Assembly (NCBI GenBank): GCA_963711565.1
Contig: CAVQEQ010000004.1
Location: 1,120,001-1,184,000, forward strand
Length of the DNA: 64,000 bases
Direction of reading: 5' to 3'
DNA from: an uncultured delta proteobacterium
GTDB lineage: Bacteria > Desulfobacterota > Binatia > Binatales > Binataceae
Shown here: positions 17,290 to 18,312 of the stretch, one piece after another
Numbering within the stretch: the first letter of the stretch is position 1
How the letters are laid out: every line of letters starts with the position of its first letter
Translations under genes and position numbers: made by a program
Notes under the pieces: generated by a model
The model's input: only the letters and a program-made list of their open reading frames with translations
Told to the model about the DNA's origin: nothing
Database searches by the model: none

Positions 17290-17374
17290 AATTTGGGTTT
17301 TGTAGCTTAGTTCAAGGGTCCACCGCTATAGGACCGGCGCGATCAGCTGAGATCCCGCATGCATTCGAGCCTCT

Positions 17375-17410
17375 GTCATTCTAGAGCGAAGCTGCGTAGC
17401 GAAGAATCCC
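17375..17410 (+). repeat. Short REP-like element at the left edge of the islet
   Basis: TGTCATTCTAGAGCGAAGCTGCGTAGCGAAGAATCC; shares the TGTCATTC..GAATC ends of family C. Confidence 0.55.
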
Positions 17411-17491
17411 GAATATTTCTTCGCGCCTGTCTCCACTATCTGTCACTGTGTTCCATTACTTACTAAATCCCAATATGAAAGATCGACCGAC

Positions 17492-18055
17492 ATGGCAGGT
17501 CCCTATTTTCAAAAGAAAAGCTGGCCGTCCTTTGTCTATCGAGGGACGACGCATGACCTAATCCATCTCAATGAATATGAGCTAGTAGTGGTAGATACGG
17601 GCGGCCACGAGCGCCGGATTGCTGTCACGTTTGGCGACCACTGTTTCACACGCGCTCCCACACCCGGCGATGATCCAGCGCTTGCCTACCGGGACAGCGA
17701 TCGCAGGCCAGGCAATTTCTGTTTCGTGCGCTACGCGTTAACTTTCGGCTTGCGGCAACACATCAACGATGCCGTTGTAGGTAGGGTTTGGAATGTGGAA
17801 GGGGACCATTTCGCGGCGGTGCCTGAAGTTGATTCCTCCGGCAAGCGCGTTTCCTATGGAATCATTTTTAGTCTTGACCGCGTTACTGGTTTACCGGTGC
17901 ATCTGCACATGCGCATCAAAACAGCCTACCCGATTAATCTAAGGCTTGTGACATTTGGCTCCGTACGATTTCTGCATCTGGTTGCTTTGCGGATGAAGGG
18001 CAAAAGACCGCAAAAAGATCACCAGCGCCGTCGGAAGGTCCCAAGAATTCGGTAG
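17492..18055 (+). CDS. YjaZ/HtrC-like protein of unknown function (187 aa), basic C-terminal tail
   Basis: Motif order W.SF...G...DL.HL / VTF..HCFT / FC..RY.L / Y.I.F / LH..TAYP / V.F matches E. coli YjaZ as recalled. Visibly lower GC than the flanks. Confidence 0.75.
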   Translation: MAGPYFQKKSWPSFVYRGTTHDLIHLNEYELVVVDTGGHERRIAVTFGDHCFTRAPTPGDDPALAYRDSDRRPGNFCFVRYALTFGLRQHINDAVVGRVWNVEGDHFAAVPEVDSSGKRVSYGIIFSLDRVTGLPVHLHMRIKTAYPINLRLVTFGSVRFLHLVALRMKGKRPQKDHQRRRKVPRIR

Positions 18056-18064
18056 TGAGAGAGC

Positions 18065-18096
18065 AACAAAAAGAAATAGGCCCTTTCGGGCCTATT
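18065..18096 (-). terminator. Intrinsic terminator of the predicted sRNA
   Basis: Minus strand reads AATAGGCCC-GAAA-GGGCCTATT then TCTTTTTGTT. Confidence 0.85.
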
Positions 18097-18228
18097 CGAT
18101 TCCGCCTACGGCAGGAATCTCTGGGCGAACCTCTTTCCTGTTTCCAGGTATCAATCCCATCCGGGATTGACTTGGTTGTAAAACCAAGCGGGGCTGGCTA
18201 TGCGCACGCCCTTGTATCCAGCGATCTC
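18065..18228 (-). ncRNA. Predicted ~165-nt structured small RNA convergent with the YjaZ-like gene (SroH-like position)
   Basis: Own promoter, five consecutive hairpins (18171-18188, 18151-18170, 18137-18148, 18098-18119, 18075-18096), closing stem 18207-18211/18123-18127, and a U-tailed terminator. Confidence 0.75.
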
Positions 18229-18233
18229 AGCCA

Positions 18234-18261
18234 ATTATATGCTTCTCCCAAGGAGCGTCAA
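18234..18261 (-). promoter_or_regulatory. Near-consensus sigma70 promoter for the predicted sRNA
   Basis: Minus strand TTGACG (18261-18256), 16 nt, TATAAT (18239-18234). Confidence 0.8.
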
Positions 18262-18312
18262 GCTACAAATCGGCGCGGTCGTTGCCTTCACTCCGATCCC
18301 ATTGCGCAGCTG

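Follow-up and report, generated by a model that had tools for sequence, protein, structure and literature searches.

What is the structured RNA encoded tail to tail with an open reading frame in a genome of the Binatales, and what does it do there? The question is raised by a stretch of 64,000 nucleotides from an uncultured delta proteobacterium (contig CAVQEQ010000004.1, positions 1,120,001 to 1,184,000), called the window below. An initial annotation had described a single-unit folded RNA on its minus strand. We have found that this RNA and the neighbouring gene, which encodes a homologue of YjaZ/HtrC, lie together in an inserted segment with the following parts.

17290..18312, no strand assigned: the whole inserted cassette (about 1.0 kb), flanked by gspC and a GNAT gene
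17492..18055, plus strand: gene of a YjaZ/HtrC-family protein and putative toxin, 187 aa, pI 10.3, PF27200, with a predicted RelE/BrnT-like (BECR) fold
18065..18228, minus strand: the YjaZ-associated ncRNA, about 160 nt in a single unit, supported by folding, covariation, linkage and RNA contigs
18234..18261, minus strand: sigma70-type promoter-like site of the RNA, TTGACG-16-TATAAT, an 11/12 consensus match
18065..18097, minus strand: intrinsic-terminator-like hairpin (18097-18074) with a GAAA loop and a U tract, ending about 10 nt short of the yjaZ stop

The RNA is real, and it belongs to a conserved family of structured ncRNAs that is not listed in Rfam. When the minus strand of 18055-18240 was folded, its energy of -73.7 kcal/mol corresponded to a z-score of -4.91, and none of 200 shuffled sequences equalled it. 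Without the terminator, the z-score was -4.04 on the minus strand versus -2.67 on the plus strand. The RNA is present as one copy in its genome, which speaks against an origin as a genomic repeat. At the gathering score it matched no Rfam family, falling below the threshold of sroH, of sraL and of every other family, and a search by E-value returned only a chance match (E 7.9); the initial annotation, which did not recognise it as a tRNA, SRP RNA, 6S RNA or riboswitch, is in line with this. The promoter-like and terminator-like sites were both located on the minus strand, as had been claimed, and bracket the RNA exactly, while the counts of such sites do not exceed the shuffled level. As judged by eye, most homologues have similar promoter boxes with the spacing unchanged.

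In terms of architecture, the sequence, the five hairpins and the complementary segments GGGCG and CGCCC of the initial annotation were all present on the minus strand of 18065-18228, hairpin D with a single bulged U. The arrangement of the core was different from the one proposed.

18193..18222, minus strand: helix P1, GCUGG (18222-18218) with CCAGC (18197-18193), which holds the top mutual-information pair and was absent from the earlier drawing
18123..18211, minus strand: predicted pseudoknot helix, GGGCG (18211-18207) with CGCCC (18127-18123), crossing P1
18130..18192, minus strand: P2, CC (18192-18191) with GG (18131-18130), which closes the junction of hairpins A, B and C
18188-18171, minus strand: hairpin A
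18170-18151, minus strand: hairpin B
18148-18137, minus strand: hairpin C, with a GAAA loop
18098..18119, minus strand: hairpin D, variable in length and sequence

The hairpins and the GGGCG/CGCCC complement of the multibranch core are thus real, but this complement does not close the multiloop. It crosses P1 and is therefore likely to be a pseudoknot arm, and the junction is closed by the CC/GG pairs of P2. Accordingly, the core is likely to be a pseudoknot with a four-way junction and not a simple multiloop.

Covariation across homologous loci supported every hairpin. In an alignment of 45 sequences, 95.6% of the cells were paired and 27 of the 44 pairs changed on both sides; structures slid along the same alignment reached at most 49% paired, although the shuffle test can be inflated by kinship among the sequences. 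Covariation was strongest at pair 7-36 of P1 (A-U in 26/45 and G-C in 18/45 sequences), and two-sided change was seen in 16 of the 17 pairs of hairpins A to C. The first pair of P2 was C-G in 43 rows, U-A in one and A-U in one, and in phage copies it was G-C (locus L129) or A-U (L221). The crossing arm was paired in 97.8% of cells with no two-sided change in the close family, where its outer pair was broken in 4/45 sequences. Distant families retain a complement at this place with different sequences, and the support for the putative pseudoknot arm comes mainly from them. The junction linkers AUA and AAGAG are conserved, and the P1 loop carries the pseudoknot arm together with the conserved unpaired bases U23, G24, G26, A28 and A30. 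Conservation reaches at least 90% at more than 20 unpaired positions, in contrast to the variable hairpin stems; this pattern fits bases that touch a protein or take part in tertiary contacts better than it fits a guide.

Homology of the neighbouring protein to YjaZ/HtrC of E. coli K-12 was established by hhalign (96.7%, E 4e-10). The window ORF itself matched no family in the copies of Pfam, NCBIfam and PADLOC that were searched; the precomputed label PF27200 was found on 73/73 close relatives, for which the Atlas name is YjaZ. A profile search for homologues gave 816 representatives at E<=0.001, and among 80 homologues of about 20-35% identity, H25 and H50 were invariant and R80 was kept in 79. 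Two independent AlphaFold models (pLDDT 91) both ranked the RelE, BrnT, HigB, ParE, YoeB and CdiA-CT folds at the top, with Z 4.1-4.3 and rmsd 2.9-3.5 over 71-76 residues, where the best background match of the tool is typically 7-8. Foldseek searches of PDB and viral libraries returned nothing at E<=0.001, and the ToxN fold was absent among the listed fold hits, all of them weak. From these models we infer that YjaZ would be a RelE/BrnT-like nuclease. With respect to its expression, a Shine-Dalgarno sequence at the usual spacing was found by a crude test before 2/38 yjaZ genes versus 372/1383, and several yjaZ homologues have a -10-like box directly before the ATG (17472-17491 in the window). 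Together these two features suggest leaderless or weak translation of yjaZ. A passage in PMC11551758 notes that an earlier functional name of YjaZ/HtrC was retracted, and a strain table in PMC4666387 lists viable yjaZ deletions, which fit a toxin-antitoxin view or otherwise. The Bacillus gene also called yjaZ (PMC4374534) has only the name in common and is irrelevant here.

The RNA is tied to this gene, as the initial annotation had supposed. Of 71 loci fetched by protein, 68 belong to close relatives. A model trained on 45 sequences placed the RNA after the gene and convergent to it in 64/68 close loci; 44 of these 64 are training sequences and several are duplicates, and 51 distinct full-length copies were listed besides the window. 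Three of the four loci without the RNA stop at a contig edge, and the fourth (L006) has only half of yjaZ. The seven named hosts include assemblies of Binatota, Planctomycetota, Chloroflexia and Pseudomonadota. A survey of neighbours showed no conserved protein partner beside YjaZ. In some homologues (P0076; L077:1893-2498; L081:1866-2498) an upstream gene for a helix-turn-helix protein or regulator either is fused to yjaZ or overlaps it.

The RNA-yjaZ pair is a patchy, mobile two-gene cassette that is common on plasmids. In 6/15 congeners gspC and the GNAT gene abut with a gap of 5-6 bp, indicating that the cassette in the window is an insertion, and most of the other congeners hold different inserts. 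The window-type RNA was absent from 46 congeners searched; YjaZ occurred in 2/36 congeners, and with a close-family profile in 0/200 other genomes of a phylum sample. Homologues of YjaZ were present in 491 plasmid records, including plasmids of 5-7 kb. Genes seen next to yjaZ encode, among others, recombinases, an IS3 transposase and ParA. In E. coli, sroH was found in 3743/5426 genomes and yjaZ in 3741/5426. PADLOC gave no match for 19 YjaZ proteins and matched 2/75 neighbours (75/145 ORFs scanned), so there is no defence-island signal. A second YjaZ cassette lies elsewhere in the genome of the window (G000:C4:761155-761685; L073/L123), with further copies in two congeners (L122, L124, L125). 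Its RNA is a shorter variant with an unchanged topology (GAGCGC/GCGCUC, GCUGGG/CCCAGC). As side observations, the gspC-GNAT junction (L107-L121) is an insertion hotspot that is either empty, in the 6/15 congeners, or filled with short or unrelated inserts, and the left edge of the cassette (window 17374-17419) bears a REP-like repeat, for which blastn found about two dozen matches across the genome.

Two known small RNAs of E. coli are probably related to the window RNA. In E. coli K-12, SroH (RF00372) is convergent to yjaZ (htrC) and ends 1 nt from its stop, which is the layout of the window; the proteins are homologous, the RNA is likewise about 160 nt and the pair is likewise accessory, but the window RNA has no match to RF00372. 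Plasmid copies of SroH have, by descriptor fit, the same P1-P2-pseudoknot topology. A set of 25 distant YjaZ loci was hand-picked for diversity in E. coli and on plasmids; here the slot after the yjaZ stop held Rfam sroH above threshold in three and sraL in five, and one further distant locus scored 38.5 for sraL against a cut-off of 39. Next to YjaZ homologues on plasmids, SraL/RyjA (RF01408) thus takes the place that the window RNA has here; it has P1, P2 and the crossing helix and has the linkers GAUA and AAAG in common with the window RNA. It differs from the window RNA in that the latter does not match its Rfam family and that the chromosomal SraL of E. coli, described as a base-pairing regulator, has no adjacent yjaZ.

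In the SraL group, P1, P2 and the crossing helix were 96.3% paired, with one two-sided change in the crossing arm, in an alignment of 8 rows of which one is misaligned; the SroH-group alignment was misaligned and was left out of the covariation evidence. A topology descriptor fitted 19 of 31 transcripts versus 3.8 expected from shuffles, a result that is supportive only since the descriptor was designed post hoc. It missed 12 loci, some of them where the promoter was picked wrongly or the arm has only 3 bp, and its registers differ from the by-eye reading in L082, L093 and L098. By group, the crossing arm reads GGGCG/CGCCC, GCUGGG/CCCAGC, CGGA/UCCG, CCGG/CCGG, CUGG/CCAG, CAGA/UCUG, CAGG/CCUG or GUGG/CCAC. 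When the RNA types, assigned by eye, were placed on the protein tree (41 rows), six changes were required where the minimum is five; RNA types that follow the protein tree indicate co-inheritance, not co-evolution. Model R1 matched the expected slot in 9/18 distant loci, only weakly (E 0.003-0.6), and gave no match to E. coli SroH; neither R1 nor the Rfam models bridge the three RNA groups significantly. On the basis of position, topology and short linkers, we infer that the window-type, SroH and SraL RNAs share ancestry. One intact YjaZ homologue, on a Vibrio plasmid (L092:1165-1713), has no recognisable RNA and is followed by a different hairpin-rich stretch.

Plasmid relatives of the orphan E. 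coli SraL are convergent to YjaZ homologues. The E. coli ryjA/sraL gene itself (L105:2427-2567) adjoins soxR, and no YjaZ remnant was detected there; E. coli SraL is possibly a domesticated antitoxin. In the open-access literature searched, no report linked YjaZ/HtrC with SroH or SraL as a system. As cited in a passage of PMC5389530 from Hobbs 2010, an sroH deletion in E. coli is viable and sensitive to envelope stress.

Copies of the RNA were also found in phage records. In one viral record (L128), found by a DNA-pattern search of viral contigs, the RNA occurs together with YjaZ. In at least four others it occurs without YjaZ and in two variants, one in L129 (1495-1641, upstream of a portal gene, 103.7 bits) and L166 (2453-2561), the other in L221 and L227, which are records of 253 and 195 kb. 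Wherever their ends were sequenced, these copies show promoter-like and terminator-like sites. The four records are incomplete (11-66%), and YjaZ may therefore be unassembled in them. No YjaZ was found in annotated phages, and a peptide-pattern scan of viral contigs found none either; the scan missed the viral record that does bear YjaZ, which indicates that it under-reports. As for the RNA, a viral 3'-core pattern gave at least 120 matches, mostly noise, and R1 recognised one true copy among the 80 listed; a regular expression run across the 3'-core matches added at least three, one being a repeat of L128. A CCAAG-type pattern had no matches in viral contigs, a GUGG-type pattern had eight, none of them RNA-like, and L127, a further candidate, was rejected as a chance match. 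Decoy versions of type III antitoxins are known from phages.

Taken together, we favour, with moderate confidence, the interpretation that the RNA and YjaZ form a type III-like toxin-antitoxin family in which a single-unit, convergent RNA antitoxin blocks a predicted ribonuclease. This reading is the most economical one considering the folded core, the predicted nuclease, the lack of a protein partner, the mobile two-gene unit and the phage copies that carry only the RNA. In a broad sense, type III systems are recognised by a conserved, structured and pseudoknotted ncRNA linked to a protein gene, and such a pair, with the pseudoknot as predicted from sequence, is found here. On the proposed mechanism, a strong promoter would supply the RNA in excess over a weakly translated, basic YjaZ; the pseudoknot and junction core would dock on YjaZ via its conserved unpaired bases; and the RNA would thereby bind and block the RelE/BrnT-like ribonuclease. 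When host transcription stops on phage infection, or when the cassette is lost in plasmid segregation, the RNA would decay and the nuclease would halt growth. A phage RNA without YjaZ would act as a decoy antitoxin. On the other side we count the weak fold match, the viable sroH deletion, the mRNA targets of SraL and SroH, the RNA-less locus L092, the pseudoknot arm without two-sided change in the close family and the missing defence-island signal.

ToxIN, CptIN and TenpIN likewise combine a pseudoknotted RNA with a predicted endoribonuclease in a two-gene mobile cassette. Passages in PMC12283969 describe their tandem RNA repeats and a terminator upstream of the co-transcribed toxin. In contrast, the window RNA is a single unit that lies downstream, on the opposite strand and with its own promoter-like site, and the window protein weakly resembles RelE/BrnT; by its layout the pair does not belong to these three families. 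RNA antitoxins outside the three classical families are described for AvcID and AbiF in PMC12283969 and PMC10511110. The AvcID toxin AvcD is a deoxycytidylate deaminase, unlike YjaZ. The AbiF toxin is a HEPN nuclease. Among type II toxins, RelE, BrnT and HigB (BECR fold) are the top structural neighbours of the YjaZ models by the Z values given above, but they are neutralised by proteins, and YjaZ differs from them in extra N- and C-terminal elements and a basic tail. To our knowledge, YjaZ would be the first RelE/BrnT-fold nuclease to be restrained by an RNA.

A wider proposal, to which we give somewhat less than an even chance, is that YjaZ/HtrC proteins and their convergent RNAs constitute a widespread, hitherto undescribed protein-RNA toxin-antitoxin and anti-phage superfamily, in which YjaZ has SroH as its antitoxin in E. 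coli, SraL would be a domesticated orphan from the same lineage and phage decoys disarm the system. What is new here is an RNA family outside Rfam that is tied to a protein family without an accepted function. This gives testable roles to E. coli K-12 yjaZ/htrC, sroH and sraL/ryjA, genes that have been studied for decades, and if the proposal is true, two long-unexplained E. coli small RNAs have a common origin. RNA antitoxins would then reach the RelE/BrnT fold, in a convergent layout missed by repeat-based searches for type III systems. Plasmids of Enterobacterales, Pseudomonas and Vibrio commonly carry the cassette, which could help to maintain them or to defend against phages, and the RNA copies in phages point to counter-defence.

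Of the alternatives to RNA inhibition, the one that survives best is that RNA and YjaZ assemble into a ribonucleoprotein whose activity depends on the RNA, which would serve as cofactor, scaffold, sensor or self-cleaving element and not as an inhibitor. The linkage, the covariation and the conserved unpaired core fit this as well, the viable sroH deletion is consistent with it, and a pseudoknot with a junction is a common feature of ribozymes and scaffolds. The RNA contigs hint weakly at processing. Three contigs of one soil metatranscriptome cover 18110-18214, including one identical to the window, and the ORF has none; they stem from a single study and have a small word share, neither habitat nor ends, strand or level can be derived from them, and the missing cover of the ORF proves nothing. 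The contigs are a hint that the RNA is abundant. They derive from different strains and all end at 18213-18214 in the P1 loop, in one case followed by adapter letters, so that a processing site or a library artefact is possible. Against a ribonucleoprotein, the RNA has no variable single-stranded guide segment, its variable parts being paired stems, no Rfam ribozyme was matched, and the phage copies lacking the protein are explained more easily as decoys. We consider this alternative unlikely.

The tail-to-tail layout brings to mind antisense control of type I, of which Bacillus txpA-RatA is a convergent example: the RNA would pair with the 3' end of a yjaZ mRNA that reads through and would destabilise it. 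The RNA end falls from -12 to +32 nt from the yjaZ stop in homologous loci, and in the window the plus strand has no U tract after the terminator hairpin, so the yjaZ mRNA might read through. However, in two separate events genes have been inserted between the RNA and an unbroken yjaZ, over 741 and 1001 nt, and neither the RNA nor the gene shows a break; this suggests that the overlap is not needed. Outside the overlap, the longest complement between the RNA and the yjaZ mRNA is 8 nt, which is at chance level, and antisense pairing would not require so elaborate and conserved a fold, whose G-U pairs favour one strand. Accordingly, we regard antisense control as improbable.

It is also conceivable that the RNA is a trans-acting, base-pairing sRNA that merely travels with yjaZ. 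Passages in PMC3753932 report SraL repressing tig by pairing, as a validated target, and in PMC6172242 SroH bound kbl mRNA in a binding assay; orphan copies of the RNA exist as well. On the other hand, the link to YjaZ is near-obligate across hosts from several phyla, the RNA types track the protein clades, and the RNA was not found in the 46 congeners. The targeting of mRNAs may be a later role of the orphans, and we give trans-acting regulation little credence as the role of the RNA at this locus. That the locus is merely a terminator or a repeat-derived cluster of hairpins without an RNA function is very improbable: its 3' end is terminator-like and REP-like repeats are near in the genome, but it is a single copy, a promoter-like site precedes it, all of its stems covary and RNA contigs cover the core. 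Lastly, the 3' ends of two homologous loci are rearranged, with a duplicated terminator segment in L021 (3574-3758) and an inverted duplication behind the terminator in L017.
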